Shown: in pieces, positions 38,537-58,050 of the stretch | Layout of the letters: every line of letters begins with the position of its first letter | Position numbering within the stretch: the first letter of the stretch is position 1 | Assembly (NCBI GenBank): GCA_035261845.1 | Contig: DATFTN010000197.1 | Location: 17,923-81,922, forward strand | Direction of reading: 5' to 3' | Length of the DNA stretch: 64,000 nucleotides | Origin: Myxococcales bacterium | GTDB lineage: Bacteria > Myxococcota > Myxococcia > Myxococcales > 40CM-4-68-19 | Notes under the pieces: model-generated | Databases searched by the model: none | The model's input: the letters and a program-made list of their open reading frames with translations, nothing else | Told to the model about the DNA's origin: nothing | Position numbers and translations under genes: made by a program

Positions 38537-38554
38537 GATCTCCCTGGGGCGGCT

Positions 38555-39832
38555 CTAGATGCCGGCACTCCCGTTTCGGTTCACGACCAAACCTGGGCAG
38601 CGGACGAAAACCTTCCCGGGTTTCTGGTGGATGAGTCCCTTTATCTCCAGCTCCGTCAGCCAGCGGAGCGCCTCGTGGGCAGGAAGCTGCGCCCGCGCGG
38701 CCAGGGCGTCCACGTGCAAGGGCCGCCCTCCGTCGAAAAGCTCCCAGACCCGCCGGGCCGGCCCGTCGAGCGGCTGCTCGATCGGCCTCGGCGCAGGAGC
38801 GCGACCGGCCGGCTTCCCGGAAGGAAGGACGGCGCTCTCGCGAGCAGCGTGGGGACCGCGCTGCGACCAGCCGAGCAGCTCCACGATCTCCCCGGCGCAG
38901 CTGACGGGCGAGGCGGCGCCGGCGGCCAGCAGGCGATGCGGGCCGGCCGCGAGGGGATCCGCTCCTTCTCCCGGCACGGCAAAGATCGGCCTGCCCAACG
39001 CTGCCGCATGCTTCGCGGTGATGAGCGCGCCGGAAGCGGCCGCGGCTCGGACGACCACCGTGGCGTGGGATAGACCCGCGATCGTCCGGTTGCGGCGGGG
39101 AAAGTTCGGGGGCGCCGCGGGAGTCCCCGGTGGCAGCTCGCTCACCACTGCTCCGCCGGCGGAGGCGATGCGCTCGAACAGGGCTTCGTTCTCCGGCGGG
39201 TACGGCATGTCGATGCCGCTCCCCAGCACGGCGACGGTGCGGCCCGCGCCCCACAGGGCACCCGCGTGCGCCTCCGCGTCCACGCCGCGCGCCCCGCCCG
39301 AGACCACCTCGACGCCCGCGGTGGCAAGACCTTCGGCGAGCTCTCGCGAGAGACGAAGCGCCGGTTCGTCGGCGGCGCGCGCGCCGACCAGGGCGACGCG
39401 CCGGGCGACGGCCGGCAGCTCGCCGCGCACGAAGAGCACCGGCGGCGGCTTTCCGATGCATCGGAGCAGCTCGGGATACGACTCGTCCCGCGGCGTGATC
39501 ACCCGGGCCCCGACAGCCTTGGCCGCGGAGATCGCCCAGGCGCCCAGCGCCTGCAGATCTGGCCGCTGCGCGAGAAACTCGCGCGTCCTGCGCCCCAGCC
39601 GCAGCTCCGCCGCCTTCGATGCGAGGGCGCCCGGCCCTGCCTGGAGAGCTCCGGCCGGCGATCCGAAGGCCTGCGCCAGGCGCTCCACCGATCCCGCGCC
39701 CATCCCGGGAACACAGGCGAGCGCGCAGACGGCGACGACCTCCCGCTCAGGGTCGTGCGCGCCTCCCGCCGCCGTCTGGATTGTTTCCGTCACCGCCGAC
39801 GCCCTCCCGCGAGGTGCTGCGTCAAGCCACAT
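38555..39832 (-). CDS. dprA: DNA processing protein DprA (Smf)
   Basis: Track ORF 38555..40258 trimmed to MWLDAAPRG. Motifs seen: VALVGARAA, VVSGGARGVDAEAH, FPRRNRTIAGLS. A winged-helix-like C-terminus is present. Confidence 0.85.
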   Translation of the reverse strand: MWLDAAPRGRASAVTETIQTAAGGAHDPEREVVAVCALACVPGMGAGSVERLAQAFGSPAGALQAGPGALASKAAELRLGRRTREFLAQRPDLQALGAWAISAAKAVGARVITPRDESYPELLRCIGKPPPVLFVRGELPAVARRVALVGARAADEPALRLSRELAEGLATAGVEVVSGGARGVDAEAHAGALWGAGRTVAVLGSGIDMPYPPENEALFERIASAGGAVVSELPPGTPAAPPNFPRRNRTIAGLSHATVVVRAAAASGALITAKHAAALGRPIFAVPGEGADPLAAGPHRLLAAGAASPVSCAGEIVELLGWSQRGPHAARESAVLPSGKPAGRAPAPRPIEQPLDGPARRVWELFDGGRPLHVDALAARAQLPAHEALRWLTELEIKGLIHQKPGKVFVRCPGLVVNRNGSAGI

Positions 39833-39858
39833 CCCGGCCGGAGGGTCAAGCGGCCTTC

Positions 39859-41430
39859 TTACGGACCGCCCGATCCCTGGAGGCGCATTTCGACCACATC
39901 GCCCTTCCGAAGCTCCTTCACGCTCCTCACCACCACCGCGGTGCTGAGCCGGTCCTTCACGTCCACCACCAGCAGCAGGCCCACGCTCTCGTAAGGCACG
40001 GCGACGCCGGCCGCCCGCGAGCCGGTCGCGCCCATGTTGTAGGCCTCGCCGTACACGGCCAAATCGTGCAGGCCGTCGCCCTTGCGGACCACCGCGAAGG
40101 TGTTGCCCACCTCCACGCCGTCCCTCTCGCCCTTGTCGATGAACACCTCGTTGGACTCGCCCAAGGTGGTCAGCCCCCGGCGCACCGCCGAGACGATGAC
40201 GCCCCGCATCTCCTTCGAGTTCGGCTTGGGCGCCACCCTGAGGTCCTGATCCGTCCACGGCCGGGCCAGGTCGCCGCGCTCGATCTCCTCCCAGGTGCGG
40301 GTGATCTGCACGGTGGCCAGCCGGCCGTCGACCGAGATCACCTTGGCCTCGCCCATGCTGCGGGTCTGCGTGCCGAGCCGCCGGCCGGTCACCGGCTGCA
40401 CGATGTCGCCTTCGGGCCGGAAGAGGATGATCCGGTCGCCGATGTTCACCTCCGCTCCGCGGGGGAACCGCACGTAGGCGGTGTCGAAGGTCGAGAGCAT
40501 GTCCTTCTCCTCGAAGGACGCGTCCAGCGAGCCGGCCTGCCGCATCTCCTCGGGAGTGACCAGGCCGCTGTCGTGCACGGTCAGCACGGGAGGCGGCTTG
40601 AATGCGAGCTTGCCACTGACCGAAACCGTGTTGCCCGACTGGTCGAATTCGCGGCTGCCCTTGCGCACCACCGCGAGGTCAGCCGCCTCGGGCGGCGAGG
40701 TGTCCACCTGGTTGGCGATCTCCGACTGCGGGCGCTCGTCCTCCGGCTCGACCTGCGTCGGGGCCTGCGGACCCTGGCCGGGGATGAGCTTCAGCTTGTT
40801 GCCCGGATAGATCCAGTGCGGGTTCTCGATGTACGCGTTGAGGCTCCAGATCTTCGGCCAGTACCAGGGGTTGTTGAGGAACTTCTGCGACAGGTCCCAC
40901 AGCGTGTCGCCCTTCACGATGACGTAGATCTCGGGAGTGTCGGGCTGGATCTGCATGCCCTTCTCCTCGGCGGATTTGGGCATCACCAGCCTGCCCTCCG
41001 GACCCTCGCTCGTCAGCGGAGGCTCGGGCTGCATCACGCGCTGCGGGCGCGTCTCGCCGTGCGCGACGGCCTCGTCCTGCTGCGCGGCCTCGCTGGAGGG
41101 CGACGGGACCGTCGCCGGCGCCGCATCGGTTTTCGCGGGACCCTTCCCCTTGCGCCGGCGCTTCGGCTTGGCCAGGGCTTCCGCCCGGGCCGGACCTTCC
41201 AGCGCCGGCGGCGCCTCGACCCGGCTGGGCCCTTCGAGGTCGTTGGGTGCGGCCGCGGGGTTGGCAGCGCCGGCGGAGTCGGGCGCGGCCGCGGGAGCAG
41301 GCGCGGGGGGCGGAGCGGCCAGGCGGCTGGGGCCCTCCAGCTCCTCCGCGCGGGACGGCCAGACGAACGCGGCCGCGGCGGCGGCGGCGAGCGCCGCCCT
41401 GCGCAACCGAGAGATGGTCTTGGTCCGCAT
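39859..41430 (-). CDS. Secreted LysM-domain protein
   Basis: C-terminal part of shadow ORF 39859..43200. The ATG at 41430 gives MRTKTISRLRRAALAAAAAAAF. The LysM domain reads YVIVKGDTLWDLSQKFLNNPWYWPKIW. The motif LEGPSR/LEGPAR occurs three times. Confidence 0.8.
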   Translation of the reverse strand: MRTKTISRLRRAALAAAAAAAFVWPSRAEELEGPSRLAAPPPAPAPAAAPDSAGAANPAAAPNDLEGPSRVEAPPALEGPARAEALAKPKRRRKGKGPAKTDAAPATVPSPSSEAAQQDEAVAHGETRPQRVMQPEPPLTSEGPEGRLVMPKSAEEKGMQIQPDTPEIYVIVKGDTLWDLSQKFLNNPWYWPKIWSLNAYIENPHWIYPGNKLKLIPGQGPQAPTQVEPEDERPQSEIANQVDTSPPEAADLAVVRKGSREFDQSGNTVSVSGKLAFKPPPVLTVHDSGLVTPEEMRQAGSLDASFEEKDMLSTFDTAYVRFPRGAEVNIGDRIILFRPEGDIVQPVTGRRLGTQTRSMGEAKVISVDGRLATVQITRTWEEIERGDLARPWTDQDLRVAPKPNSKEMRGVIVSAVRRGLTTLGESNEVFIDKGERDGVEVGNTFAVVRKGDGLHDLAVYGEAYNMGATGSRAAGVAVPYESVGLLLVVDVKDRLSTAVVVRSVKELRKGDVVEMRLQGSGGP

Positions 41431-42257
41431 CAGTGCCTCCCCGAGTCGATGTCGAGACTCATCAGGAGCTGGCGGGCAGCGCCCCCTTCCACGCCCTCCG
41501 GGTGCTCCCGCACGATCTTCGCGAACAGCTCGCGCGCCTCGTCCTTGCGCTGCATCCTGGTCAGGCAGCGGCCCTTCTCCACCATCGAGGCCAGCACGGC
41601 GTCGCCGGCCGGGTACGTCAGCGGCACCCGCTCGAACAGCGCCACGGCGCCGGCGCAGTCGCCGTTGTGCTCGCGGATGAGCCCGGCCAGGTAGAGCGCG
41701 TTGTCGGCGGCCGTGTGGCGCGGGTGCTCGCCGGCGAAGGCGAGCAGCTCGGTCTCGGCGGCCTCCAGCTCGCCCCGGTTGAGCTTGCCGACGGCTTGCG
41801 CGAAGGCGTGATCGGCGTCCAGCTCGGCCCGGATGCCCGGATCGACTGCCGCCGCTTCGAGGCGCTCGAGCGTCTCCTGGTCGGGCTCCTTGATCGAGAT
41901 GGAGTTGGGGATGTTCGGCGCGCGGTCGACCGGGTTGTAGTCGCGGCGCCGGCGGCGGCCCTCGCCGAGCTTGACCGTCTTCAGCTTCGGCCGCGGGTCG
42001 TGCGCGGGAGCGGCGACCGGCGCGGAAGCAGGCGCCGGCTTTTCGGCACGGGCCGCGGCCGCCTGCTTCGCGTCGGCGCGAGCCGCCAGGGCGGCGAGCT
42101 TCACTTCCAGGTCCTCGATCCGGCGCTGCTGCGCGGCGACCTGCGCGGATTGCGCGGCGAGCTGCCCCTTCAGCTCGAGCAGCGCGTCCTCGCGCACCTG
42201 TGCGCCCGCGCAAGCAGCGCACGACGCGAGGGCGAGGATCGGCTGCCAAAAACGCAA
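41430..42257 (-). CDS. YbgF/CpoB-like lipoprotein (coiled coil plus TPR-like C-terminus)
   Basis: Track ORF of 275 aa. The TTG start follows GGAGGA. Lipobox is ALASC. The coiled-coil region is Ala/Gln-rich. The C-terminus reads DNALYLAGLIREHNGDCAGAVALFERV. Confidence 0.6.
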   Translation of the reverse strand: MRFWQPILALASCAACAGAQVREDALLELKGQLAAQSAQVAAQQRRIEDLEVKLAALAARADAKQAAAARAEKPAPASAPVAAPAHDPRPKLKTVKLGEGRRRRRDYNPVDRAPNIPNSISIKEPDQETLERLEAAAVDPGIRAELDADHAFAQAVGKLNRGELEAAETELLAFAGEHPRHTAADNALYLAGLIREHNGDCAGAVALFERVPLTYPAGDAVLASMVEKGRCLTRMQRKDEARELFAKIVREHPEGVEGGAARQLLMSLDIDSGRH

Positions 42258-42338
42258 GGGATTCCTCCGTTAAGCAGGCGGATCTGCTCAGCATGATGGC
42301 GGCCGCTCCAGGGAGTGTCAAAGAATCGCGAAGGGATT

Positions 42339-43169
42339 TCAGAGGGCGCGCGAGGCGATGAAAGCCAAGTGTCTTCCGGTAGTTCCGCGATCGCGCCGGT
42401 GGCTGAAACAGGCGGAGATGTCGCACGATGTGCACCCGCCGGCGTGCTCGATCCGCTCTTGTCGTACACCCGCCGACCGCAGCGCGGATTCTACGCAAAA
42501 GCGCAGATCGAGGTGCGGCTTCGCGGTGGTCTGCGGGTCGTCGGCGGCCTGGGGCCCGAAGAGCGAGCGGAAGAGCGCGGCCAGGTCCTTGCCGACTTCG
42601 TAGCAGCAGCGCTCGATGCACGGGCCCACCGCGGCGAGCATCCGCGCGGGCTCCGCGCGCGAGACGTGCTGCATGGCCCGCACCCCGCGCCCGGCGATCG
42701 CGGCGCGCGCTCCGCGCCATCCGGAGTGGACGGCAGCCGCGAGACCACGGTCCGGCGCGTAGAGCAGCACCGGGACGCAGTCGGCGACGCGCACCGCGGC
42801 AGCCACGCCGGGCCCCAGCGCGATCACGGCGTCGGCGCGCACCGCTCCATCCGTCTCCGGGCCGGCTTCGGCCTCGCTTCCGGAGCTCGGCGGGAAGATC
42901 TCGGTCAGGGGCGCCCCGCGCGTCGCGCCGACCACCCGATCCCCGTGCACCTGGTGCGCGGAGGCGAAGGCTTGCGGCCCCTCGAGCCCGGCGGCCTCCG
43001 CCAGCCGGCGCAGGTTCTCTTGCACGGCCGCCGGATCGTCTCCCACGCCGCGTCCCAGATTCAGCGACTCGTATGGTCCGCGGGACACCCCGCCGGTCCG
43101 CACCGAAAACCCGTGCACGACGCCTTCCGCCGACAGGAGCCGCGAGGTGAGAAAGAGCCGCTCGCCCAT
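42339..43169 (-). CDS. pgeF: PgeF/YfiH family (laccase-domain) purine nucleoside phosphorylase-like protein
   Basis: Track ORF of 276 aa. Motifs seen: VVHGFSVRTGGVS, QVHGDRVV, ADCVPVLL, HSGWRG, CTSCD..FSHRRD. Confidence 0.85.
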   Translation of the reverse strand: MGERLFLTSRLLSAEGVVHGFSVRTGGVSRGPYESLNLGRGVGDDPAAVQENLRRLAEAAGLEGPQAFASAHQVHGDRVVGATRGAPLTEIFPPSSGSEAEAGPETDGAVRADAVIALGPGVAAAVRVADCVPVLLYAPDRGLAAAVHSGWRGARAAIAGRGVRAMQHVSRAEPARMLAAVGPCIERCCYEVGKDLAALFRSLFGPQAADDPQTTAKPHLDLRFCVESALRSAGVRQERIEHAGGCTSCDISACFSHRRDRGTTGRHLAFIASRAL

Positions 43170-43243
43170 CCTGCCATTGTAGCGGCTTCAAGCGTTTCAC
43201 GCGGAGAGCGCGGAGGAAAAGGAGAGAGCGCGGAGATTCGTGG

Positions 43244-43837
43244 CTAGAGATCCTGGGTGAGGGTGGGGCCGTCGCTGGGGCGGGACTGCTCGATGGCGGG
43301 ATCGAGGGGCTGCGGGCCGCGGACGGGGCCGCGTTGCATCAGCACGATGCGCTCGCCGCTCGCGTCACCCACGTCGTCGCCGCCCGGACCCAGATCGCGC
43401 AGGCCCTCCAGCACCAGCCGGTCGCCGATCCTGCGCACCCTGTAGGCGGTGCGCGCGCCGTCGCTGCGGCCGTCGCCGAGCAAGAAGACGTCCTCCTTCA
43501 GCTCCCAGCTGCACGAGCGGTCGGAGATGCCCGGCTCCTCGCCGTCGACGGAGACGGCCAGCGCCAGCCTGCAGGCGCCGCCCGCCGAGAGGGTGAGCGC
43601 GCCGCGCTCGGTGAGCACGTGCTCGGCGCCCGAGGCGTCGAGGAGCCGCGTGCCGGACTCGGTGATCTCGACCAGGCGCTCCACGCCGTCGAGCGTGGCG
43701 CGCGAGCGGATCGACTCGACCTGGTACTGGCCGGCCGCGAGCATCGGCCGATCCGACCGTCCCGCCCCGGAGCCGTGCGCGCAGGCGACGCCCAAGGCCA
43801 CCGCCGCCAGGACCGCCACCCTCGACCCGCTCGCCAT
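43244..43837 (-). CDS. Hypothetical lipoprotein (197 aa)
   Basis: C-terminal part of shadow ORF 43244..44692. The ATG at 43837 gives MASGSRVAVLAAVALGVACAHG, which contains a lipobox. Confidence 0.55.
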   Translation of the reverse strand: MASGSRVAVLAAVALGVACAHGSGAGRSDRPMLAAGQYQVESIRSRATLDGVERLVEITESGTRLLDASGAEHVLTERGALTLSAGGACRLALAVSVDGEEPGISDRSCSWELKEDVFLLGDGRSDGARTAYRVRRIGDRLVLEGLRDLGPGGDDVGDASGERIVLMQRGPVRGPQPLDPAIEQSRPSDGPTLTQDL

Positions 43838-43898: not shown

Positions 43899-43914
43899 TG
43901 CACGAGGCTTGCCA
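43899..43914 (-). promoter_or_regulatory. Candidate sigma-54 promoter (-24/-12)
   Basis: The minus strand reads TGGCAAGCCTCGTGCA. GG and GC have the consensus spacing of TGGCAC-N5-TTGCA. It lies about 60 nt upstream of the lipoprotein ATG at 43837. Confidence 0.3.
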
Positions 43915-43940
43915 GCTTGCCGCCCGGATCCTTGGTTTCC

Positions 43941-43964
43941 GGATGGGAAAGCGCGTTCCCATCC
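43941..43964 (-). terminator. Perfect 9-bp hairpin downstream of dedA (no U-tract)
   Basis: GGATGGGAA-N6-TTCCCATCC, 20 nt after the dedA stop at 43984. Confidence 0.35.
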
Positions 43965-43983
43965 AGGCCGGGGGCGTGTCCCG

Positions 43984-44622
43984 CTACGGTCCGCCGGTGG
44001 CCCGCGTCGTCTGGCGGCGCGAGGTCTGCTTCCAGACGAAGTACGCGATGCCCGCGACGATGAGGACCCCGATGACGATGTCCGCGCGGTGGAACCAGGC
44101 CGTGAGCAGCTCGCGGTTCTCGCCCACCTTCATGCCGACCCAGCCGAGGCCCAGGCACCAGGGGAACGAACCGACGAAGGTGTAGACGATGAACTTGCCC
44201 ATCGGCATCCGGGCGACGCCGGCGGGAAAGGCGATGAAGGTCCTGACCACGGGCAGGAGCCGGGCGATCAAGACGGTGATGTGCCCCCGGCGGACGAAGA
44301 ACCGCTCTCCCCAGTCGAGGTGCTCGGCGTTCATCAGGAAGTACTTTCCGTAGCGGAGCACCAGCGCGCGCCCGCCGTACATGCCGGCGTAGTAAGCGGG
44401 GATGGAGCCCAGGACGCAGCCGATGGCTCCCGCCAGCGCGATGCCCCACAGGGTGAAGCGCCCGGTCGCCACCAGCCAGCCGGCGAACGGCATGATCATC
44501 TCGCTGGGGAGCGGGATGCAGCAGCTCTCGATGGCCATCAGCAGGGCGACGCCGGGATAGCCCATCGCCGAGATGACCCCCGAGATCCAGGTGAAGAGGG
44601 CTTCGAGAAAGCGGGTGATCAT
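43984..44622 (-). CDS. dedA: DedA-family membrane protein
   Basis: Track ORF of 212 aa. Motifs seen: GYPGVALLMAIESCCIPLPSE, RLLPVVRTFIAFPAGVARM. Its ATG overlaps the kamA TGA as ATGA. Confidence 0.85.
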   Translation of the reverse strand: MITRFLEALFTWISGVISAMGYPGVALLMAIESCCIPLPSEMIMPFAGWLVATGRFTLWGIALAGAIGCVLGSIPAYYAGMYGGRALVLRYGKYFLMNAEHLDWGERFFVRRGHITVLIARLLPVVRTFIAFPAGVARMPMGKFIVYTFVGSFPWCLGLGWVGMKVGENRELLTAWFHRADIVIGVLIVAGIAYFVWKQTSRRQTTRATGGP

Positions 44623-45830
44623 CCGGGGGTCCCTCGCAGCACGCGCAGCCGCGGCGCGGCGGCGGCCGCGCCGGGGTAGAAGACCTCGTCATAGGGGACC
44701 GAGCAATCCGTCTCGGCCGGCTCGGGATAACGGTACTGCTCGCCCCGGTAGTTGCGCAGGACCGTCTCCGAGGCCGACCGCTCCACCACGTAGTCCGGCT
44801 GCAGCGTCACCTTCCCGCCGCCGCCCGGCAGATCGACCGCCAGGTGCGGCACCGCCAGACCGGTGGTCCAGCCGCGCAGGCCCTGCAGGATCTCGATCCC
44901 CTTGGCGAGCGGGGTGCGCAGGTGCTCCAGCCCCTCGGCGACGTCCATCTGGTGGAGGTAGTACGGACGGACCCGCATCGTCAGGCACTTCTGCATCAGG
45001 TCGCGGATGGCCCTGACCGAGGAGTTCAGCCGGCGCATCAGCACCGCCTGGTTCTCCACCGGGATGCCGTGGTCGACGAGTTGCTCGCAGGCTTCCCGTG
45101 CCTCGGGGGTGATCTCCTTGGCGTGGTTGAAGTGCGTGACGACGTACAGCGGGGCGAAGCGGCGCAGCGCGCGGCACAGCTCGCCGTCGACGCGCATGGG
45201 CAGGCAGACCGGAATGCGAGTGCCGATGCGGACGATCTCTACGTGGGGGACCGCGCGGATCCCGTCGAGCAGATCGGCCAGCCGCTCCGTGGAGAGGAGC
45301 AGCGGATCGCCTCCGGAGACGAGCACGTCCCGCACCTCGGGATGCGCGCGCAGGTACCCGAGGGCCTCCTGAAGCTCCTCGCGGGTGATCCCGCCCTCGT
45401 CGCCGCTGGTGATCCGCCGCCGGGTGCAGTGCCGGCAGTAGACGCTGCAGTGGTCGAGGGCGAGCAGGAGGACGCGGTCGGGGTACTTGTGGACGATGGC
45501 GCGCACCGGGCGGTGCAGGTCCTCGCCGAGCGGGTCGCGGAGCTCGCCTTCGTGCTTGGCGGCTTCCGCGCGCACGGGGATCGCTTGCATGCGCACCGGG
45601 CAGAAGGGGTGGGCCGGGTCGATGAGCGACAGGTAGTAGGGCGAGATGCCCAGCCGGAAGATGCCGCGCGTGTCGACGCAGCCGCGCCGCTCGTCCTCGG
45701 TGAGCGGAACGCAGCGCTCCAGCTCGTCGAGAGAGCGCACGGAATGGCGCAGCTGCCAGCGCCAGTCGCGCCACTGCGCATCGGTCGCCTCGGGAAAAAG
45801 GCGCTTCCAGCTCGGCGAAGTGCTCTGCAT
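44619..45830 (-). CDS. kamA: Lysine 2,3-aminomutase (KamA/AblA-type radical SAM, PLP)
   Basis: Track ORF 44619..45890 trimmed to MQSTSPSWKRLFPEATDAQWRDWRWQL. Motifs seen: CSVYCRHCTRRR, SGGDPLL, HQMDVAEGLEHLRT, AVDLPGGGGK. Confidence 0.85.
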   Translation of the reverse strand: MQSTSPSWKRLFPEATDAQWRDWRWQLRHSVRSLDELERCVPLTEDERRGCVDTRGIFRLGISPYYLSLIDPAHPFCPVRMQAIPVRAEAAKHEGELRDPLGEDLHRPVRAIVHKYPDRVLLLALDHCSVYCRHCTRRRITSGDEGGITREELQEALGYLRAHPEVRDVLVSGGDPLLLSTERLADLLDGIRAVPHVEIVRIGTRIPVCLPMRVDGELCRALRRFAPLYVVTHFNHAKEITPEAREACEQLVDHGIPVENQAVLMRRLNSSVRAIRDLMQKCLTMRVRPYYLHQMDVAEGLEHLRTPLAKGIEILQGLRGWTTGLAVPHLAVDLPGGGGKVTLQPDYVVERSASETVLRNYRGEQYRYPEPAETDCSVPYDEVFYPGAAAAAPRLRVLRGTPG

Positions 45831-45962
45831 GCGTCCGGAGGGGAACCCGCGGGGGCGCGGGAAGATGCCGCCCGCCCGGGCCGGCGTCAAGCCAGGAAGC
45901 GAGCGAGCACGTCCGCGACCCGGGAGGGAAGCGGGCGCGTCCTCGGCCCTGAGGCTTTACAC

Positions 45963-47999
45963 CTAGCCCGTCGTTCCCGGCGCGAACAAACCCTTGAACG
46001 CACGCGTGCTGCTGACGCCGTTGGCGTTGGTGACCGTCACGGGCACCTGGAAGGATTTCGACCCGAACTGGTCAGGGCCCGGAGCGCAACCGGTTCCCGT
46101 GGTGCTCGCTGGTGCGGTGGGCTTGGCCGTCGTGTTCTGGACCACCAGGATGCCCCCGCCGCCCGCGCTGAAGAAGTGGAAGGCGAGCCTCTCGACGCAC
46201 GCCGCGCCATTGGCGATGTCGCACGCTTTCGTGTTCACCAGGGCCGAGACGCGCACCCAGTCGAAGTCCATCGACCCGAAGGTCTCGAGGGGCGTTCCGG
46301 GAAGGCTCAGGCCGGTCGTGGTCAGCGCACTCGACGAAGGGTTCCCGATGGAGGTCGAGAATCCGGCAGACGGCGTGTTCAACCAGCGATCGGAGACGAA
46401 GATGGGTGCCGTGACGGTCGAGCTGTGGTTCGCCACGAAGGCATCCTTGTAGTCCGCGCAGGCCGGCGCCGCGGCCCCTGTGAAGTCGCTGGCCGGTTCC
46501 GCCACGCCGGCCGGCGCCGTCCTGGCCGAGCCGGGCCCGGTGAAGACCACCCAGGTGGGCTTCCAGATGACCGTGTCCGCGTCCCACACGCCGTTGGGGC
46601 CGTGGTACGTAGAGCAGTCCGCGTTCAGCCCGCAGAACCGCACCTCTGCGAGGCCGCCGCTGAGCGTCGCGTCATAGGCGTTGTTGTCGTTCGCGTCGAC
46701 GAAGGGGTCGCCCTGGTCGATGAAGACCTCGCCAGGATCGAGAAGGCCGTTGTGGTTGGCGTCCTCGAACGCCTCCTCGCCACGGGTCATCGCGATGATC
46801 GTCACCAGCTGGTCGCGCGGGTTCAGAGTCAGCTGCCCGTCCGTCGTCGACGGTTCGGGATTGGCCAGGTCCCACGGGAACTGTCCGGCGGTCACGGCCA
46901 GCGGCGCGACGTCGGCCGGCGAGCTCCCGTTGCCCATGTCGGTGGTGAAAGTCACGGTCGCGGTGCCCTCGGTGGGGTTGTCGGGGGTCTTGGGATCGAA
47001 TCCCTTCGTAGTCACGCTGGCGGCGATCGCGCCCGCCTCGGTCGCGAAGTTCACCACCGTCGGGATTCCGACGCGGTTTCCGAAACGGTCGGTCAGCCGG
47101 ACCGTGCAGGCCGTCTTCTCGTACTCCATCACCGTGGTGTAGACGGGCAGCGAGGCGTTCGCGCAGCGGAAATAGAAGCCGTTCGCCGACGGCTTCGCCC
47201 CGCGCACCGCGACGGGTTGCAACACGAAGGCGCCCGTGGTCGGGATGGTGGCGGTAATGGCGGTGACGCCGACCTCCGCGCCCGACGTGTAGCCCTCCGT
47301 CACCACGCCGTTCAGGTCGCTCACCGCGCTCGTCTTGAGCAGCGTGATGCCGAGCGTCGGCGCCTGGAGGGCGAAGTTCACGGTGATGCCCGGAGCGGGA
47401 ACTCCCAGCGAGTCGGTGACCAGGTACGCGATCGTGCCGCGCTCCTGGATACCGGAACCCTTGAGCCCGAGCACGGGCGGGTTCGAGGCGGTCACGGCGA
47501 TGTTGGTCGGCGGCCCGGGAGGCGTCCCAACGGGTGGGGGAGGCGTGCCGCCGCCGCCTGGAGGAGGAGGCGGGGTGCCGCCGCCCGGCGCGACGTTGCT
47601 CACGGTCAGCGTCAAGGTCTTGCCGGCCGACGACCAGCTGCCGGAGACGAACACGTTCCCCGCGACGCAGCGCGAGTCGACCGCGACGTTGCAGGAGTAG
47701 TTGATCGTCCCGGTGCCGTCGGTCGCGAGGGTCACCGTATTGGCCGGCGCGCCGCCCGAGTCGGTCAGGGTGCCGAAGGGGGCGACGAAGGTGACGGTGC
47801 CCGAGCCGGGAGTGCCGGCCGCGTTCACGGCCCTTGCGAGGATCGACACCGGAGTGCCGTCGTTGCGCACCGATGTGGCCGAGGGCAGGAGCGTCAAGGA
47901 AGCGGTGGGGCCGCTTCCCGCGCTCGAACCGGAGCAGGCGTAGAGCCCTGCCACCGCGGCGGCAACGAGGATGCGAGCTGAGGCACGAAACGAGGTCAC
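45963..47999 (-). CDS. Large lipoprotein with bacterial Ig-like (Big) domains and a Pro/Gly linker
   Basis: Track ORF 45963..48086 trimmed to the GTG at 47999 (VTSFRASARILVAAAVAGLYAC), with GGAGGA upstream. Ig-like segments are Thr/Ser/Gly/Val-rich. The linker reads GGTPPPPPGGGGTPPPPVGTPPGPP. Confidence 0.65.
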   Translation of the reverse strand: MTSFRASARILVAAAVAGLYACSGSSAGSGPTASLTLLPSATSVRNDGTPVSILARAVNAAGTPGSGTVTFVAPFGTLTDSGGAPANTVTLATDGTGTINYSCNVAVDSRCVAGNVFVSGSWSSAGKTLTLTVSNVAPGGGTPPPPPGGGGTPPPPVGTPPGPPTNIAVTASNPPVLGLKGSGIQERGTIAYLVTDSLGVPAPGITVNFALQAPTLGITLLKTSAVSDLNGVVTEGYTSGAEVGVTAITATIPTTGAFVLQPVAVRGAKPSANGFYFRCANASLPVYTTVMEYEKTACTVRLTDRFGNRVGIPTVVNFATEAGAIAASVTTKGFDPKTPDNPTEGTATVTFTTDMGNGSSPADVAPLAVTAGQFPWDLANPEPSTTDGQLTLNPRDQLVTIIAMTRGEEAFEDANHNGLLDPGEVFIDQGDPFVDANDNNAYDATLSGGLAEVRFCGLNADCSTYHGPNGVWDADTVIWKPTWVVFTGPGSARTAPAGVAEPASDFTGAAAPACADYKDAFVANHSSTVTAPIFVSDRWLNTPSAGFSTSIGNPSSSALTTTGLSLPGTPLETFGSMDFDWVRVSALVNTKACDIANGAACVERLAFHFFSAGGGGILVVQNTTAKPTAPASTTGTGCAPGPDQFGSKSFQVPVTVTNANGVSSTRAFKGLFAPGTTG

Positions 48000-48070
48000 T
48001 GGTCCTCCAACCCGGGCAAGTCGCGCGGGAGACGTGGTGTGGGCACATTGGCAAGCGCTCCCGCGGGGGG

Positions 48071-48085
48071 TCAAAAGTTTTGCCA
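48071..48085 (-). promoter_or_regulatory. Weak sigma-54-like element in an AT-rich patch upstream of the Ig-like lipoprotein gene
   Basis: The minus strand reads TGGCAAAACTTTTGA. The -24 TGGCA and the spacing are correct, but the -12 element is TTGA instead of TTGC. It is directly abutted by ATTTGCGAA (plus-strand TTCGCAAAT at 48090-48098). Confidence 0.2.
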
Positions 48086-48143
48086 AACTTTCGCAAATCC
48101 AGATGTAAGTCGCGCCGCGCGAATGTGCGGAACGCGGCGGCGA

Positions 48144-49190
48144 TTACCGAGTCAGGGGTCCCAGTTCGGGATCGTCGGAGACGGCCCCGGTCGGGGCGCC
48201 GGCCTCGAGCGCCCGCTTCAGCCAGTTCAGCGCGCGCTCGCGCTCGCCCGCGCGCAGGTTGGCGCGCGCGGCCACCACCGCCGCGTCGGGAGTCTGCCAG
48301 AGCGTGTAGCTGTGGCCCGCGTGCAGCCCCGCGGCCTGGTAGTCGCCGCGCGAAAGCTCGACTCCGGCGCGGATGCGCAGGCCGGCCGCCTGCCGGTACG
48401 GGCCTTCTCCGTCCTCGAGCGCCCGCGCGGAGGCGAGCGCCGTATCCACGTCGGAGGTGAGGAGCGCGGCGCGGGCGCGGGACAGCTCGCGGTCGACGTC
48501 CTCCCGCTCGGCGTCGCGCACCTGCCCAGCGGCGGGCGGGGGCACCGCGCTTTCCTGCTTCGCCAGCCTGGCGCGAGTGACGTTCTGGAAGGCGAAGAGC
48601 CCGAACCAGATGGCGATGTACGGCTGGCCAAACAGACGCCAGGCGGCGAGCGCGATGCACCCGGCCAGGACGGCCGAGATCCAACTCGCCAGCGCCGCGC
48701 TCGGCTTGCGCCTCACGCCCTCGATCACCGCCTGCAGCACATGCCCGCCGTCGAGCGGGATCACCGGCAGGAGGTTCAGCACGGCCCAGTAGATGCTGGT
48801 CCACTTGAACAGCGACACGATCACGGCGGCGGGCGAGCCAGGGTCGGGCGGCAGCAGGCTGCCCAGCCCCCAAGCGGCGGCGCCCAGGCCCAGGCCGGCC
48901 AAGGGACCCGCTACCGAGAGCACGATCTGTTTCCCCACCGAGGGGCGCTGCGGAAGGCGAGGAAAGGTCACTCCGCCGAATCCCTCGAGGCGGATCTCCG
49001 GCCGCCCGCCATAGGCGAGCGCCACCGCGGCGTGCCCCAGCTCGTGCACGAGCACGCTGACGAAGACGACTCCGATCCAGAGGAGGAGCGTCGCCCAGTC
49101 GTCCATCGAGACGTAGCCGAGCAGCGCCGCCGCGACCAGGAAGGACGGGTAGACGGCGACGGGGAGTGAGCCGAGCCGGAACCGGAGCAC
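48144..49190 (-). CDS. M50-family (site-2 protease type) zinc metalloprotease with a C-terminal TPR-like region
   Basis: Track ORF 48144..49310 trimmed to the GTG at 49190 (VLRFRLGSLPVAVYPSFLV). Motifs seen: HELGH and NLLPVIPLDGGH. Confidence 0.75.
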   Translation of the reverse strand: MLRFRLGSLPVAVYPSFLVAAALLGYVSMDDWATLLLWIGVVFVSVLVHELGHAAVALAYGGRPEIRLEGFGGVTFPRLPQRPSVGKQIVLSVAGPLAGLGLGAAAWGLGSLLPPDPGSPAAVIVSLFKWTSIYWAVLNLLPVIPLDGGHVLQAVIEGVRRKPSAALASWISAVLAGCIALAAWRLFGQPYIAIWFGLFAFQNVTRARLAKQESAVPPPAAGQVRDAEREDVDRELSRARAALLTSDVDTALASARALEDGEGPYRQAAGLRIRAGVELSRGDYQAAGLHAGHSYTLWQTPDAAVVAARANLRAGERERALNWLKRALEAGAPTGAVSDDPELGPLTR

Positions 49191-49308
49191 GCCGGCGTAG
49201 TCTACAGCGCATTGCGTGGCTTGCCGCACGATGGAACGCAGGCGACTTCGCCTTGACCCCGGCCTCCCGCCGCCTGTAGGAACTTCGCTGGAGGTCCAGG
49301 CGCCCGAC

Positions 49309-50670
49309 ATGAAGAGAAAACCAGCCTCGCGCAGGGAGAGCGCCGACCAGCCTTTCCAGTACCCGCTCGAGCGGGCCTACGCCGAGCCCGACTGGACCCG
49401 GCTGCCGGGGTACCGCAAGGTCACGCCGGCGGAGTGGGAGAGCGCGCTCTGGCAGCGGAAGAACACTGTCAAGAACCTGGCCGAGCTGAAGGAAGTGCTG
49501 GGGCGCCTCCTGCCCGACGAGCTGGTGGAGAGCATCGAGCGGGACCAGCGCGAGCGCGCCACCATGTCGCTCTTGATCACCCCGCACATGATCAACACGC
49601 TCGACGAGCGCGATCTGTGGGCGGACCCGCTCCGGCGCTACATGCTGCCCGCGTTCGACGACCGACGGACCGACTGGCCCAGCCACCCGCGCGCTTCCCG
49701 CGACTCGCTGCACGAGGCGGAGATGTGGGTGGTGGAGGGGCTCACGCACCGCTACCCGACCAAGGTTCTGGCGGAGATGCTCTCCACCTGCCCCCAGTAC
49801 TGCGGCCACTGCACGCGGATGGACCTGGTGGGCAACTCGGTGCCGCAAGTGCAAAAGCTGCGTTTTGCGCTGGCGCCGAAGGATCGGTATTCGCAAATGT
49901 TGGAGTATTTGCGAAGCAATCCGTCGGTGCGCGACGTGGTGGTCTCGGGCGGGGACGTGGCCAACCTGCCCATCGAGCAGCTGGAGCAGTTCGTCTCGGC
50001 GCTGCTCGACATCCCCAACATCCGTGACGTCCGGCTGGCCTCGAAGGGCCTGATGGGGATCCCGCAGCACTTCCTGCAGGACAAGATCCTTCAGGCGCTG
50101 GACCGGCTGGCGCGCAAGGCGTTCGAGCGCGGCGTGTCGCTCGCGCTGCATACGCACGTGAACCACGCCAACCAGGTGACGCCGCTGCTGGGCCGCGCGG
50201 CGAAGAAGCTGCTGGAGCTGGGCTTCCGCGACGTCCGCAACCAGGGCGTGCTGCTGCGGGGGGTCAACGACTCGCAAAAGTCGCTCCTGGAGCTGTGCTT
50301 CATGCTCCAGGACCATGCCAACATCCTGCCGTACTACTTCTACATGTGCGACATGATCCCCAACTCGGAGCACTGGCGCACCAGCGTGGCCGAGGCGCAG
50401 GCGCTGCAGCACGACATCATGGGGTACCTGCCCGGATTCGCCACCCCGCGGATCGTCTGCGACGTTCCTTTCGTGGGGAAGCGCTGGGTGCACCAGGTGG
50501 CCGAGTACGACCGGGAGAAGGGCATCTCCTACTGGACCAAGAACTACCGGACCGGCATCGAGGTGAACGACCCGGACGCGCTCGAGCGGCGCTACGAGTA
50601 CTACGACCCGATCTACCTCCTTCCGGAGTCGGGCCAGCGCTGGTGGCGCGAGCAGGCCCGCGCGGCTTAG
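49309..50670 (+). CDS. KamA-family radical SAM aminomutase paralog (lysine 2,3-aminomutase-related, substrate unassigned)
   Basis: Track ORF 49216..50670 trimmed to MKRKPASRRESADQPF. Motifs seen: CPQYCGHCTRMD, SGGDVANL, YMCDMIPNSEHWRT, VCDVPFVGKRW. Confidence 0.8.
   Translation: MKRKPASRRESADQPFQYPLERAYAEPDWTRLPGYRKVTPAEWESALWQRKNTVKNLAELKEVLGRLLPDELVESIERDQRERATMSLLITPHMINTLDERDLWADPLRRYMLPAFDDRRTDWPSHPRASRDSLHEAEMWVVEGLTHRYPTKVLAEMLSTCPQYCGHCTRMDLVGNSVPQVQKLRFALAPKDRYSQMLEYLRSNPSVRDVVVSGGDVANLPIEQLEQFVSALLDIPNIRDVRLASKGLMGIPQHFLQDKILQALDRLARKAFERGVSLALHTHVNHANQVTPLLGRAAKKLLELGFRDVRNQGVLLRGVNDSQKSLLELCFMLQDHANILPYYFYMCDMIPNSEHWRTSVAEAQALQHDIMGYLPGFATPRIVCDVPFVGKRWVHQVAEYDREKGISYWTKNYRTGIEVNDPDALERRYEYYDPIYLLPESGQRWWREQARAA
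49890..49915. repeat. Perfect 9-bp AT-rich inverted repeat TTCGCAAAT-N8-ATTTGCGAA inside the kamA-paralog CDS
   Basis: Read directly at 49890-49898 and 49907-49915. A second hairpin, GCAAAA-N6-TTTTGC, lies at 49851-49868. Both are built from codons that are rare for this genome. Confidence 0.9.
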
Positions 50671-51039: not shown

Positions 51040-51966
51040 TCAGATGTGGTCGAGCAGCGCGAACCCGGCGGAAGAGCCGGCGCGGGGGAGCTTCACCTCG
51101 GGCCGCAGGGCCGCGACCATGGCCAGCGCGGTCGTCCGCGGCTGTGAGCGGAAAACGCCGCGGAGCTGGTGCGCCGGCCACAGGCGCAGGCGCGAGCGGC
51201 CGCTGCGCAGCAGGAAGTCGCGCAGCGCGGCGAACAGCGGCTCGCGCAACGAGGCGGCGGTCCAGCCAGCGTCCAGGACCTCCACCGCCTCGCGCGACAG
51301 GCGCAGCATGGCGGCCGCCTCTGCGCCGTCCCGGCCGATGTGGATTCCCCACTCCGGCTCGCCCATCCCCCGCGCCTTGGCCAGCTCGCGCAGCCGGCGG
51401 AGCTGGAAGGAGAGGACCCAGCCGTCGCGGGCCAGCGCCAGCTCGTCGGCGGCGGTGCGGGCGCGGGCGAAGACGCGCACCAGCACCTCCTCGTCGCGGG
51501 CGACGACGTGCGCGGTGCCGCCGCGCGGCAGCTCGTCCGCCTCGGCGGTGCATTCCTCGCTTTCCAACGCGCGGAACCCCAGCCGCTCGTAGTACTCGCC
51601 GCCGATGTCGCTGAAGAGCACCGCCGCGTCGTAGCCGCGCGAGCGATGCTCGGAGAGGGCGAGCTCGAGCATCCGGCGGGCGTGGCCGCGGCGGCGGAGG
51701 GCGGGCGGGGTGAAGACGGCGCCGATGCCGAACATGCGGAGCGGCGCGCCCGCGTAGCTGCCGCGCAGTTCGTAGCCCTTCATCGCGGAGAGGAGCCGGT
51801 CCCCGTCGAACAGCCCGAGCAGGTGGTACCGTTCTCCCGCTTCGCGCGAGTCGGCGAGCCGGCGCTGGAAGGCGATGAACCTCTCCGGGTTCAGCCCGCC
51901 GCCCCAGATGGGCTGGACCCCGCGGAAGTAGTCGTCGCGCTCGTGTTCGTTGAGCAGGCGGAACAC
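51040..51966 (-). CDS. GNAT-family N-acetyltransferase with C-terminal extension (Eis-like architecture)
   Basis: C-terminal part of shadow ORF 51040..52401. GTG at 51966 gives VFRLLNEHERDDYF; the start is uncertain. GNAT motif A is seen as PALRRRGHARRMLELAL. Confidence 0.65.
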   Translation of the reverse strand: MFRLLNEHERDDYFRGVQPIWGGGLNPERFIAFQRRLADSREAGERYHLLGLFDGDRLLSAMKGYELRGSYAGAPLRMFGIGAVFTPPALRRRGHARRMLELALSEHRSRGYDAAVLFSDIGGEYYERLGFRALESEECTAEADELPRGGTAHVVARDEEVLVRVFARARTAADELALARDGWVLSFQLRRLRELAKARGMGEPEWGIHIGRDGAEAAAMLRLSREAVEVLDAGWTAASLREPLFAALRDFLLRSGRSRLRLWPAHQLRGVFRSQPRTTALAMVAALRPEVKLPRAGSSAGFALLDHI

Positions 51967-52072
51967 GCCGCGCTTCTTAGCACGTCGCCGGGCGGCCGGC
52001 CCTCTCACGCGGACGCTTTCGTCGTCTCCGGGGCAGCTTGATCTCGCCGTCGCGTCGTGTACGTTTGCCGCC

Positions 52073-52525
52073 GTGGAAGGCCTGCCGCAAGTCCGCTTCT
52101 TCTCTCTGCGCGAGGCGAACGCGCTGGTCGCCACTTTGCAAGACCAGTTCGAGCAGGCACGCGAGCTGCGCGACGAGCTCTCGGCGGTCCAGTCCCAGCT
52201 GGCCGACGCGGGGCACCCGCTCACCGAGCCCGACGTGGAGGTGGACAAGACCGCGCCGCCCCCGGTGCAGCGGCTCCAGCGCGCCGCCTCCCGCATCCTG
52301 GACGAGCTGCGCGGCGTCCTCCGCGGCGTCGCCGAGCTGGGCGTCGAAGTGAAGGCCGCCGACGGCCTGGTCGACTTCCGCACCCGCCTCCACGGCCGCA
52401 CCGTCTTGCTCTGCTGGCGCTACGGCGAGGAGCGCATCACCCACTACCACGAACTCGAGACCGGCTTCGCCAGCCGGCGGCCCCTACCGGACGACGGCGA
52501 CTTCATCGGCGACCTGCTGCACTAG
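52073..52525 (+). CDS. DUF2203-family protein
   Basis: Track ORF 51950..52525 trimmed to the GTG at 52073. Sequence: ...RFFSLREANALVATLQDQFEQ...GVEVKAADGLVDFRTRLHGRTVLLCWRYGEERITHYHE. Confidence 0.6.
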   Translation: MEGLPQVRFFSLREANALVATLQDQFEQARELRDELSAVQSQLADAGHPLTEPDVEVDKTAPPPVQRLQRAASRILDELRGVLRGVAELGVEVKAADGLVDFRTRLHGRTVLLCWRYGEERITHYHELETGFASRRPLPDDGDFIGDLLH

Positions 52526-56367: not shown

Positions 56368-56751
56368 CTACTTGCGAACCGCGATCAAATCGATCTCGAC
56401 GCGTGCGCCTTTCGGCAGGGCCGCGACCTGCACGGTCGACCGCGCTGGAGGCGCGGACGGGAACCGCTTCCCGTAGACCTCGTTGACCGTCGCGAATTCG
56501 TTCAAATCGACGAGGAAAATGCTCGCCTTCACCACGTCGCCGAAACCGACGCCCGCCACAGACAGGACGGCGGCGAGGTTGTCCATCACCCGCTCGGCCT
56601 GGGCGCGCACGTCGCCCTGCACCATTTGCTGCGTCTTCGGGTCGAGGGGGATCTGGCCGCTCAAGAAGACCAACCCGCCGGCCACGATCCCCTGCGAGTA
56701 CGGACCGATCGCCTTCGGCGCGTTGTCGGTGGACAGGACCTGGTTGGGCAT
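56368..56751 (-). CDS. ridA: RidA/YjgF-family reactive intermediate deaminase
   Basis: Track ORF 56368..56787 trimmed to MPNQVLSTDNAPKAIGPYSQG. Motifs seen: FLSGQIPLDP and PARSTVQVAALPKGARVEID. Confidence 0.85.
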   Translation of the reverse strand: MPNQVLSTDNAPKAIGPYSQGIVAGGLVFLSGQIPLDPKTQQMVQGDVRAQAERVMDNLAAVLSVAGVGFGDVVKASIFLVDLNEFATVNEVYGKRFPSAPPARSTVQVAALPKGARVEIDLIAVRK

Positions 56752-56813
56752 CCGCGAGATCCTCCTGCGAAAGTGGGCGCGCCACACTGCGGACTCCGGC
56801 CGCGCCGGTCAAG

Positions 56814-58043
56814 TCACGCGCCGATGTCCGCTCTATTGACGACATGAGGAGGTCGCCGACCGGCTGACCGACGCAGGTCGCGGGCGAGATTTCCTCGGGA
56901 GCCGACGGCCACGCTCGCAAGCCCCAACCAGGCGGCCCACTCCCGCAGCTCGGCCGCCAGTGCCGGCGCGACTGCGGCGCGGTCCGCACGAGCCTCGAGC
57001 CAGGCGCCGGGCACCAGCAGCCGGCGCGCCGCCCGATCGGACTTCAGGTCGACCCGCGCGACCAGCCGATCGCCGAGCAAAAAGGGCAGGACGTACGCTC
57101 CCCACCGGCGCTTCCCGGCAGGCACGAAGATCTCGAACCGGTAGTCGAACCCGAACAGCCGCCGCGTCCGCGGGCGGAACCAGACGACCGGGTCGAACGG
57201 CGACAGCAGGCTGCGCGCCTCGATCCGCGCCGGTTGCGCCTCCGGATGCAAGTACGCCGGCTCGCGCCACCCTTCGACGCGCGCCTCGCGCAGCGCGCCT
57301 GAGGCGAGAAGCTCCACCAGCCTGGGCCGGGCATTGCGCACCGGCATCCGGAAGTAGTCAGCGAGGTCGGCCGCCGTGCCCACTCCATGGGCGCGCGCCG
57401 CCTGCAGCAGGAGCTGCCGCTGCGATTCCTCGCGCTCCACCTCCCGCCGGTGGTGCTCGGCGGGGACGACGCGCTCGGCCAGATCGTACCGCCTGGCGAA
57501 ATCGGCTTCCCGCGCGGCGATGGCAAGGGCCCCCCGACCAAAGTGCGATTCCAGCACCGCACGAGGCACCGAACGGAACCAGGCGTGCTCCAGCTCGTTC
57601 GACGCTCCAGAAAAGAGCGGCAGCTCGTCCGCGCGAAGCGGCCCGCGCGAGCGCACCTCCTCCAGCACCCGCGCCACGTACGCCGGGTTCTTGCGGAGGA
57701 ACCTCTCGAATCCCCACGGCCGCACGCGGTGCTCGTCGCGCCGATAGCGGAGGAGCGGCCACGTCTCGGTGGGCACGATGGACGCCTCGTGCGCCCAGTG
57801 CTCGGTGAACTCGCCGCTGCCGTAGACGAGCTTGTCGAGCAGCGCGCGGCGGTAGGGACCCAGCCGTGAAAACGGCACCTGGTAGTGCGACGGCACCAGC
57901 ACGTTCACGTAGTCGAGCTGCACCAGCGCGATCCGCCGGATGGTCCGCGCCAGGTCGCGGATGGTGACGTGTTGCGGCCGCGGCCGGTCGAATCCCTGCG
58001 CCGCGAGCGCGATGCGGCGCGCCTCGGCAAGCGAGAGCTTCAT
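56814..58043 (-). CDS. Winged-helix DNA-binding protein of the YcaQ/AlkZ-like (DUF1006) family
   Basis: Track ORF of 409 aa. Motifs seen: AEARRIALAAQGF, VQLDYVNVLVPSHY, FGFDYRFEIFVPAGKRRWGAYVLPFL. Confidence 0.7.
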   Translation of the reverse strand: MKLSLAEARRIALAAQGFDRPRPQHVTIRDLARTIRRIALVQLDYVNVLVPSHYQVPFSRLGPYRRALLDKLVYGSGEFTEHWAHEASIVPTETWPLLRYRRDEHRVRPWGFERFLRKNPAYVARVLEEVRSRGPLRADELPLFSGASNELEHAWFRSVPRAVLESHFGRGALAIAAREADFARRYDLAERVVPAEHHRREVEREESQRQLLLQAARAHGVGTAADLADYFRMPVRNARPRLVELLASGALREARVEGWREPAYLHPEAQPARIEARSLLSPFDPVVWFRPRTRRLFGFDYRFEIFVPAGKRRWGAYVLPFLLGDRLVARVDLKSDRAARRLLVPGAWLEARADRAAVAPALAAELREWAAWLGLASVAVGSRGNLARDLRRSAGRRPPHVVNRADIGA

Positions 58044-58050
58044 GGGGCGG

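Follow-up and report, generated by a model that had tools for sequence, protein, structure and literature searches.

Why does a bacterium of the order Myxococcales keep genes for two dissimilar aminomutases of the KamA family close to each other, and what do the two enzymes make? The question arises from a 64,000-nt stretch of contig DATFTN010000197.1 (positions 17,923 to 81,922 of the forward strand; assembly GCA_035261845.1), here called the window, which has a G+C content of ~70% and whose proteins have their closest relatives in the Myxococcota. The two genes, designated KamA-1 and KamA-2, lie 3.5 kb apart in divergent orientation, with genes for an M50-family protease and a lipoprotein between them. 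A first-pass annotation, made from the sequence alone, had pointed to this proximity, which we confirm, and every gene that it named was recovered at its position when the open reading frames (ORFs) were checked. It left the pathway unassigned and, from a translational coupling of KamA-1 to a gene for a DedA membrane protein, suggested a beta-amino acid destined for the cell envelope.

We consider it likely that both proteins are L-lysine 2,3-aminomutases (LAMs) making beta-lysine, that the pair is a conserved module of the Myxococcota whose neighbours are lineage-specific, and that the product passes to unlinked KamDE and Kdd enzymes and maybe to EpmA. The data reported below show to which family and fold the proteins belong, which catalytic residues they keep, which orthologs they have, and how the gene contexts and their conservation are distributed; that lysine is the substrate of both enzymes, where their product goes and that the neighbours are irrelevant to it, we infer.

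For the KamA family a mechanism is established that combines radical S-adenosylmethionine (SAM) chemistry with pyridoxal phosphate (PLP). In the window enzymes, the [4Fe-4S] cluster of the CxxxCxxC motif would cleave SAM to a 5'-deoxyadenosyl radical, this radical would take H-3 from the lysine-PLP aldimine, and the amino group would migrate via an azacyclopropylcarbinyl radical before the hydrogen is returned.

Two aminomutases of different clades

KamA-1 is close to the canonical enzyme. Its translation contains CSVYCRHCTRRR, HQMDVAEG and AVDLPGGGGK; the CxxxCxxC motif for the [4Fe-4S] cluster and SAM reads CSVYCRHC, and the loop DLPGGGGK is an exact match to the D-x-P-G-G-G-G-K sequence around the PLP lysine (K337) of the Clostridium subterminale LAM, PDB entry 2A5H. 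Residues 7-370 of 2A5H (364 residues) align with KamA-1 at 415 bits with zero gaps, and R134, D293 and D330 (2A5H numbering) are all kept. KamA-1 clears the KamA-family model TIGR00238 (328.6 bits, cut-off 199.2). Its closest NCBIfam model is AblA (TIGR03820), with 453.4 bits below the equivalog cut-off of 525.4, while the EpmB model (TIGR03821) gives 230.8 bits, below its cut-off of 369.3. In neighbour-joining trees, all computed with 200 bootstraps, KamA-1 clusters with the C. subterminale LAM at 83-89% support.

KamA-2 is the divergent member of the pair. The motifs CPQYCGHCTR, YMCDMIP and VCDVPFVGKRW were found in its translation, and its CxxxCxxC motif, CPQYCGHC, is invariant in alignments of its clade. 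R134, D293 and D330 are conserved in KamA-2 and its orthologs. The cluster motif, these three residues and a lysine in the loop are common to C. subterminale LAM and both window proteins. Relative to 2A5H, the N-terminus of KamA-2 is longer, its PLP loop is shorter and its sequence contains two insertions. Nevertheless, 2A5H is the sole PDB sequence match of KamA-2 (163 bits), and it is also the top fold match of the AlphaFold model (E 2e-22; template modelling (TM) scores 0.63/0.69), the next one being RlmN with TM scores of 0.27/0.33. The AblA and EpmB models score KamA-2 at 182.3 and 135.5 bits, respectively (same cut-offs as above), and the models for arginine and glutamate aminomutases score it below the lysine model.

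Translations, hidden Markov models and the 2A5H alignment thus bear out the family assignment and the motifs quoted in the first-pass annotation. The annotation also appears right in giving KamA-2 a basic amino acid as substrate and not glutamate. Assignment by models and phylogeny, which it had recommended, placed KamA-1 in the canonical LAM clade; KamA-2 fell outside all biochemically characterised clades and is, by gene context, a putative lysine 2,3-aminomutase.

A pattern scan over one genome per GTDB species yielded 598 confirmed relatives of KamA-2. The best 80 of these 598 have full-length identities of 68-84%, and among their taxon labels are Myxococcota, Acidobacteriota, Gemmatimonadota, Actinomycetota, Elusimicrobiota and Bdellovibrionota. 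Bootstrap support for the KamA-2 clade is 100%. Its sister (95-98%) is a more divergent clade with a short loop, represented by the relatives P0266, P0293 and P0296, and the clade of E. coli EpmB is separate (99-100%), with both window paralogs outside it. The loci examined alongside the window carry numbers from L001 to L169. Within the KamA-2 clade (L010-L089) the branching is discordant with the phyla; the Myxococcaceae copy, for instance, pairs with a Gemmatimonadales copy (97%) and not with the window copy. Because the branching ignores taxonomy, the tree suggests that the clade spread horizontally among soil bacteria. The precomputed Pfam field was blank in 120 of 120 listed relatives of KamA-2. 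The clade is large and strongly conserved, and it is missed or left under threshold by the standard domain and family models.

Gene contexts of KamA-2 orthologs

The function of the KamA-2 clade can be approached through its neighbours in other phyla. In Actinomycetota, an Lrp gene is divergent from an operon in the order KamA-2, Kdd, amidohydrolase, KamD, KamE and Kal, in which the KamA-2 ortholog (~70% identical) is translationally coupled to kdd by an overlapping start. All four assigned partners exceed their NCBIfam cut-offs: Kdd, L-erythro-3,5-diaminohexanoate dehydrogenase, with 228 bits (cut-off 200); KamD and KamE, the alpha and beta subunits of lysine 5,6-aminomutase, with 753 (600) and 325 bits (280); and Kal, 3-aminobutyryl-CoA ammonia lyase, with 181 bits (160). 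L067, L079, L080 and L082 contain the whole operon, and contig ends cut it in L068, L069 and L087. Since a kdd-kamDE-kal context belongs to a pathway of the lysine-fermentation type, the aminomutase in these operons must supply beta-lysine. Kdd, KamD, KamE and Kal are shared with the kamA-kamDE-kdd-kce-kal cluster of Fusobacterium and Clostridium, from which the Actinomycetota operons differ in that the aminomutase is of the KamA-2 type, an amidohydrolase gene stands between kdd and kamD, and no 3-keto-5-aminohexanoate cleavage enzyme (Kce) was seen in these loci.

A second context was found in eight Gemmatimonadota-type loci, where a GntR gene is divergent from KamA-2 and a class-III aminotransferase gene follows; genes for both subunits (A/B) of a CoA-transferase are kept upstream in six of the eight. 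The kamA (yodO) operon of Bacillus subtilis, whose enzyme is a canonical LAM, contains the aminotransferase gene yodT and the CoA-transferase genes yodR and yodS. The Gemmatimonadota-type loci resemble it in this gene complement, and these partners are not in the window. Such elements are found in combination in two Actinomycetota loci.

A third type of context concerns EpmA and EpmB. Two members of the sister clade, P0266 and P0293, are both overlapped by a downstream gene for a class-II synthetase-like protein of 336-339 amino acids (aa), and the one beside P0266 (L004) has EpmA as its best match (246 bits against a cut-off of 287) and shares 32% identity with the E. coli protein. In L070, L077 and L084 a gene of the EpmB clade is divergent from KamA-2. 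Over 80 genome loci, the search for conserved KamA-2 neighbours returned only such phylum-specific contexts, with no cluster in more than 14 loci. Many Acidobacteriota loci lack an informative context around KamA-2, and P0242 (59% identical) and P0296 either had no telling context or lay on a contig of insufficient length.

Taken by gene context, the KamA-2 clade is defined as a putative lysine 2,3-aminomutase clade lacking biochemically characterised members, and KamA-2-type enzymes are most likely the catabolic aminomutases of several soil phyla, performing the first step via beta-lysine. With this tie to lysine catabolism the clade deserves a family model of its own. It had been noted that neither window gene sits with known partners; epmA, efp, kdd, kamD/E and kal are indeed absent from the window. 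As a general statement this does not hold, since KamA-2 orthologs sit with kdd-kamDE-kal, the sister clade sits with EpmA-like genes, and unlinked consumers exist in Myxococcaceae (see below).

As an observation apart, a conserved gene for an amidohydrolase-superfamily protein of 510-590 aa stands directly after kdd or after KamA-2 in L067, L068, L075, L079, L080, L082, L083 and L087. The two types of lysine-catabolic cluster in Actinomycetota both contain it.

Pairing of KamA-1 and KamA-2 in Myxococcota

Of 23 Myxococcota loci, 22 have KamA-1 at a distance of less than 10 kb from KamA-2; no locus from another phylum does. A linkage that recurs in this manner is not due to chance. In 17 loci, from Myxococcus, Archangium, Cystobacter, Hyalangium and other Myxococcaceae or Myxococcota, the layout differs from that of the window and neither DedA nor M50 is nearby. 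KamA-1 follows KamA-2 on the same strand at a distance of 50-200 nt in 16 of these 17 Myxococcaceae-type loci, L013 having an insert of ~2.7 kb between the two genes, and the pair is preceded by a Ser/Thr kinase gene in the majority of the 17. The comparison of loci therefore identifies the pairing of the aminomutases as the conserved feature and not the pairing with DedA or M50.

The same two types of paralog, a divergent protein of ~456 aa and a canonical one, are known from Myxococcus xanthus, where MXAN_4699 (456 aa) and MXAN_4698 form one operon of two putative aminomutases with a stated identity of 23% (bioRxiv 10.64898/2026.05.15.725110). According to the same study, a polar disruption of MXAN_4699 weakened an evolved predatory-swarming phenotype, and disrupting only MXAN_4698 changed little with most prey (bioRxiv 10.64898/2026.05.15.725110). 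We derive orthology to the MXAN genes from L019 and L071, loci of other members of the genus Myxococcus, and not directly from the genes of strain DK1622. The pair is hence a phylum-wide feature that has already been annotated in M. xanthus, and the roles of the paralogs as well as a possible link to elongation factor P (EF-P) are now testable there, as mutants of the orthologous operon exist.

In Myxococcus and related genera KamA-2 precedes KamA-1 on one strand, whereas the window genes are divergent, 3.5 kb apart, and DedA follows KamA-1. In the lineage of the window, a pair like MXAN_4699/MXAN_4698 would have been split and inverted around the M50 gene; variable lipoprotein genes would have entered the space between KamA-1 and M50, and DedA would have come to stand behind KamA-1.

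In L022 (Cystobacter fuscus strain NCWS, 11425-12544) the KamA-1 ortholog appeared as three tblastn segments in differing frames, which reflects either a pseudogene or frameshift errors in the assembly.

Fate of beta-lysine and alternative explanations

In M. xanthus the lysine 5,6-aminomutase gene (kamD) is MXAN4388, which is unlinked to the kamA pair; a beta-lysine-consuming enzyme thus exists in Myxococcus outside the locus. The beta-lysine would most likely enter this unlinked KamDE/Kdd catabolism, and it may also reach an unlinked EpmA for beta-lysylation of EF-P.

Several observations weigh against the view that both proteins are lysine 2,3-aminomutases serving unlinked pathways. KamA-2 lies under every NCBIfam cut-off (TIGR00238: 172.3 versus 199.2 bits), and Pfam returned zero matches for it, neither Radical_SAM nor LAM_C. 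Its PLP loop DVP-FVGK, although the lysine is invariant throughout the clade, is one residue shorter than that of 2A5H. Both paralogs lack the Zn-site cysteines of 2A5H: C268 is replaced by Ser in each, and C375/377/380 have no counterpart, a CxCxxC motif being absent from both C-termini. The C-terminal tetramerisation domain is incomplete as well, LAM_C covering only model positions 2-60 of 127 in KamA-1. The AlphaFold model of KamA-2 has a mean predicted local distance difference test (pLDDT) score of 68, low near the cluster loop and at the C-terminus; over residues 385-442, the region of the PLP loop, pLDDT is <50 and the geometry of the loop is thus poorly modelled. We know of no assayed enzyme from the KamA-2 clade, nor did we find one in the literature. 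The taxon labels of the metagenome-assembled genomes are those of their submitters, and some of these genomes may be mis-binned. In none of the Myxococcota loci is there a downstream catabolic gene within 10 kb, and the genes of the Fusobacterium/Clostridium cluster are missing at this distance from the window pair and from all Myxococcota loci. A local functional link between KamA-1 and DedA is possible, considering that a real ATGA coupling recurs in five related loci. Finally, the proposal gives no reason why two aminomutases are kept side by side.

We regard a division of labour between the paralogs as a tentative possibility, attractive but somewhat doubtful: one paralog would be an EpmB that provides (R)-beta-lysine to EpmA for the modification of EF-P Lys34, and the other would make (S)-beta-lysine for KamDE catabolism. 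EpmB (YjeK) of E. coli belongs to the same family and catalyses the same reaction, its product being (R)-beta-lysine. A genuine EpmA is present in Myxococcaceae; it is 39% identical to E. coli EpmA over the full length, and its gene adjoins a pyrophosphatase gene, unlinked to kamA. A survey from 2024 counted Myxococcota members among the lineages of the lysine-EpmAB type, and genomes with both YjeK-type and LAM-type paralogs were noted in 2010. Moreover, each window paralog has EpmA-linked relatives, KamA-2 through the EpmA-like genes that overlap P0266 and P0293 of its sister clade and KamA-1 through L098 in the LAM clade, and the EpmB-clade gene of L070, L077 and L084 takes the position relative to KamA-2 that KamA-1 has in Myxococcota. 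On the other side, both paralogs stay below the EpmB cut-off (231 and 135 versus 369 bits), and neither is shortened to the ~340 aa of YjeK-type enzymes (403 and 453 aa; E. coli EpmB, in its own clade, has 342 aa). Both have Asp at positions 293 and 330; one of the two positions is Glu in E. coli EpmB, and likewise in P0266, P0293 and P0296 of the KamA-2 sister clade. No efp or epmA was found in the window or in the 23 Myxococcota loci. A third gene of the YjeK type could exist elsewhere in Myxococcota genomes, and the data favour neither paralog as EpmB. When metagenome contigs were scanned with an alignment of EpmA from Myxococcota, mostly distant EpmAs (<=61% identity) and no linkage of the Myxococcota type were retrieved. 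Among L090-L169, metagenome loci around EpmA, aminomutases beside epmA or efp fall into at least four KamA-family clades (E. coli type, alphaproteobacterial-like, canonical LAM with L098, and short-loop). It thus seems that the EpmB role was taken on repeatedly; it is unreadable from clade membership alone, and the window proteins may have an EpmB-like role despite their length and location.

Two further explanations are, in our assessment, improbable. That KamA-1 and the coupled DedA, perhaps with M50 and the lipoproteins, deliver a beta-amino acid to the envelope for lipid or cell-wall modification or for export, as first proposed, draws on a real ATGA overlap, which was read directly in the minus strand (...CCC GGA TGA TCA CCC...) and recurs as a 4-nt overlap or abutment in L001, L002, L010 and L012. 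The surroundings are also envelope-related (PgeF, LysM protein, CpoB-like TPR protein, lipoproteins), and the best model for the DedA protein is UptA. DedA proteins are transporters of lipids or carrier lipids. As KamA-1 and DedA are translationally coupled, they would be co-expressed in the window lineage. However, six window-lineage loci extend over the position, and DedA is present in only five of them (the window, L001, L002, L010 and L012, not L014); it is missing at all 17 Myxococcaceae-type loci; M50 and the Ig-like (immunoglobulin-like) lipoprotein are lineage-specific or variable as well. The small lipoprotein is a separate transcription unit with its own conserved sigma-54-type promoter, and nothing in the near-canonical KamA-1 hints at another product. 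A literature search for a link between KamA and DedA found nothing relevant. Because it draws on neighbours that are not conserved, the envelope proposal is very unlikely. The first-pass annotation had itself named three observations that would speak against it, namely known partner genes pairing with these copies elsewhere, an unconserved kamA-dedA overlap and a KamA-2 within a characterised clade; two of the three were made here. With the lysine 2,3-aminomutase assignment, the window genes would become ordinary beta-lysine synthases and a speculative envelope pathway can be dropped. There is similarly little to recommend the idea that KamA-2 uses ornithine or arginine, the paralogs then differing in substrate and not in role. 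It would fit the scores below every equivalog cut-off, the short PLP loop, the two insertions, the longer N-terminus and the uninformative contexts at many Acidobacteriota loci. It is at odds with the ~70%-identical orthologs that have the same active-site residues and immediately precede Kdd, KamD, KamE and Kal, enzymes that act on beta-lysine and its C6 products, with the retention of the lysine-binding residues R134, D293 and D330, and with the lower scores of the arginine and glutamate aminomutase models.

A more far-reaching version of the lysine 2,3-aminomutase assignment is speculative, and we think it rather unlikely in full. The pair would be an obligate, non-redundant module of the Myxococcota, most likely producing opposite enantiomers ((S) for KamDE, (R) for EpmA/EF-P) or forming a heteromer, and would influence predation as the MXAN_4699 phenotype hints; separately, the KamA-2 clade would constitute a major subfamily of LAMs that has gone unrecognised and escapes the Pfam and NCBIfam thresholds, and it would run a lysine pathway of the radical-SAM/B12 type in Actinomycetota, Gemmatimonadota and Acidobacteriota of the soil that are presumably aerobic. 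The under-modelled KamA-2 clade and the division of labour between the paralogs are where the remaining interest of the locus lies.

Neighbouring genes and features

The features of the locus are compiled in Table 1. DedA, M50 and the lipoproteins are lineage-specific and probably not functional partners of the aminomutases. L001, L002, L010 and L012 keep the order of small lipoprotein, DedA and KamA-1, followed by M50 divergent from KamA-2.

Table 1. Genes and elements around the two KamA-family genes; positions refer to the window.
Feature	Position	Strand	Remarks
Small lipoprotein, ~197 aa	~43244-43837	-	ORF; own transcription unit downstream of DedA
Sigma-54-type -24/-12 element TGGCAAGCCTCGTGCA	43899-43914	-	GG-N10-GC spacing, 77 nt upstream of small lipoprotein
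DedA/VTT-family membrane protein, 212 aa	43984-44622	-	PF09335 VTT_dom, 74 bits; subfamily unassigned
KamA-1, likely canonical-clade lysine 2,3-aminomutase (radical SAM/PLP), 403 aa	44619-45830	-	counterpart of M. xanthus MXAN_4698
Ig-like lipoprotein, 707 aa	45963-48086	-	variable insertion between KamA-1 and M50; weak Big_1 match, 21 bits, sub-threshold
M50-family intramembrane metalloprotease, ~348 aa	48144-49190 (or 49310)	-	PF02163, 58.9 bits; helical C-terminal tail; divergent from KamA-2
KamA-2, likely divergent-clade lysine 2,3-aminomutase, 453 aa	49309-50670	+	counterpart of M. xanthus MXAN_4699
GNAT acetyltransferase (Acetyltransf_9)	51040-52020	-	PF13527, 58.8 bits; convergent with KamA-2
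Secreted Ig-like protein, 876 aa	52522-55152	-	in low-G+C segment 52000-55200

The small lipoprotein gave zero Pfam or NCBIfam matches and has orthologs of 58-61% identity in L001, L002, L010, L012 and L014. The sigma-54-like promoter that had been assigned to it gains support from L001, L002, L010 and L012, where TGGC-N8-TGCA occurs at a comparable distance. An inverted repeat resembling TTCCC...GGGAA is located ~30-45 nt further upstream (window copy GGATGGGAACGCGCTTTCCCATCC, within 43899-43975, minus strand); it could be a site for an enhancer-binding protein or the terminator of DedA. The DedA protein itself scores 145.6 bits with the UptA model (NF052604), against a cut-off of 250, and its overlap with KamA-1 is confined to the window and the same four loci.

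In the M50 protein, HELGH (residue 49) and NLLPVIPLDG (residue 139) agree with the HExxH and NxxPxxxxDG motifs, and there are four hydrophobic segments; the RseP equivalog model scores it at 26.9 bits (cut-off 147.6). Its divergent orientation to KamA-2 is as first described, and the 118-nt spacer given for the two genes requires that M50 starts at GTG 49190. The longest ORF begins at ATG 49310, which shares a CATG palindrome (49308-49311) with the ATG of KamA-2. The lengths of the orthologs, 344-353 aa, favour the start at 49190, and the shared CATG is probably coincidental. M50 is located beside KamA-2 in the window lineage only, so that the kamA-M50 pair, too, lacks wider conservation. The Ig-like lipoprotein of 707 aa is absent from L002, L010 and L012, is replaced by three other genes in L001, and has a 44% identical copy in L011.

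Downstream of KamA-2, the GNAT acetyltransferase was considered as a possible AblB and rejected; it matched zero NCBIfam families at E<=1e-5, and another gene occupies the slot in L002, in line with the earlier statement that there is no ablB here. The GNAT gene occurs in L001, L010, L011, L012 and L014, that is, in the window lineage only. Together with a DUF2203 gene it forms a divergent pair (51040-52525) that is kept in these five loci, and a radical-SAM gene is found instead in L002.

An Rfam scan of the whole window at gathering thresholds gave zero matches, the lysine riboswitch included, and a scan of 43-52.6 kb for sigma-70 promoters and terminators found none exceeding the expectation from shuffled sequence. 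The upstream flank (36029-43187) has a housekeeping character, with TopA, DprA, a LysM protein, a CpoB-like tetratricopeptide repeat (TPR) protein and PgeF, and the downstream flank (56368-60318) contains RidA and an AlkZ-like glycosylase. A large gene at ~58-60.3 kb holds the slot of RelA/SpoT in L001, to which it is likened by position alone. The order of the flanking genes is common to the window, L001 and L002. The 876-aa Ig-like protein gene is missing at the syntenic position in L001, and between 52 and 54 kb the G+C content drops to 0.61 compared with ~0.70 elsewhere in the window; the gene may encode a recently acquired or variable surface protein.

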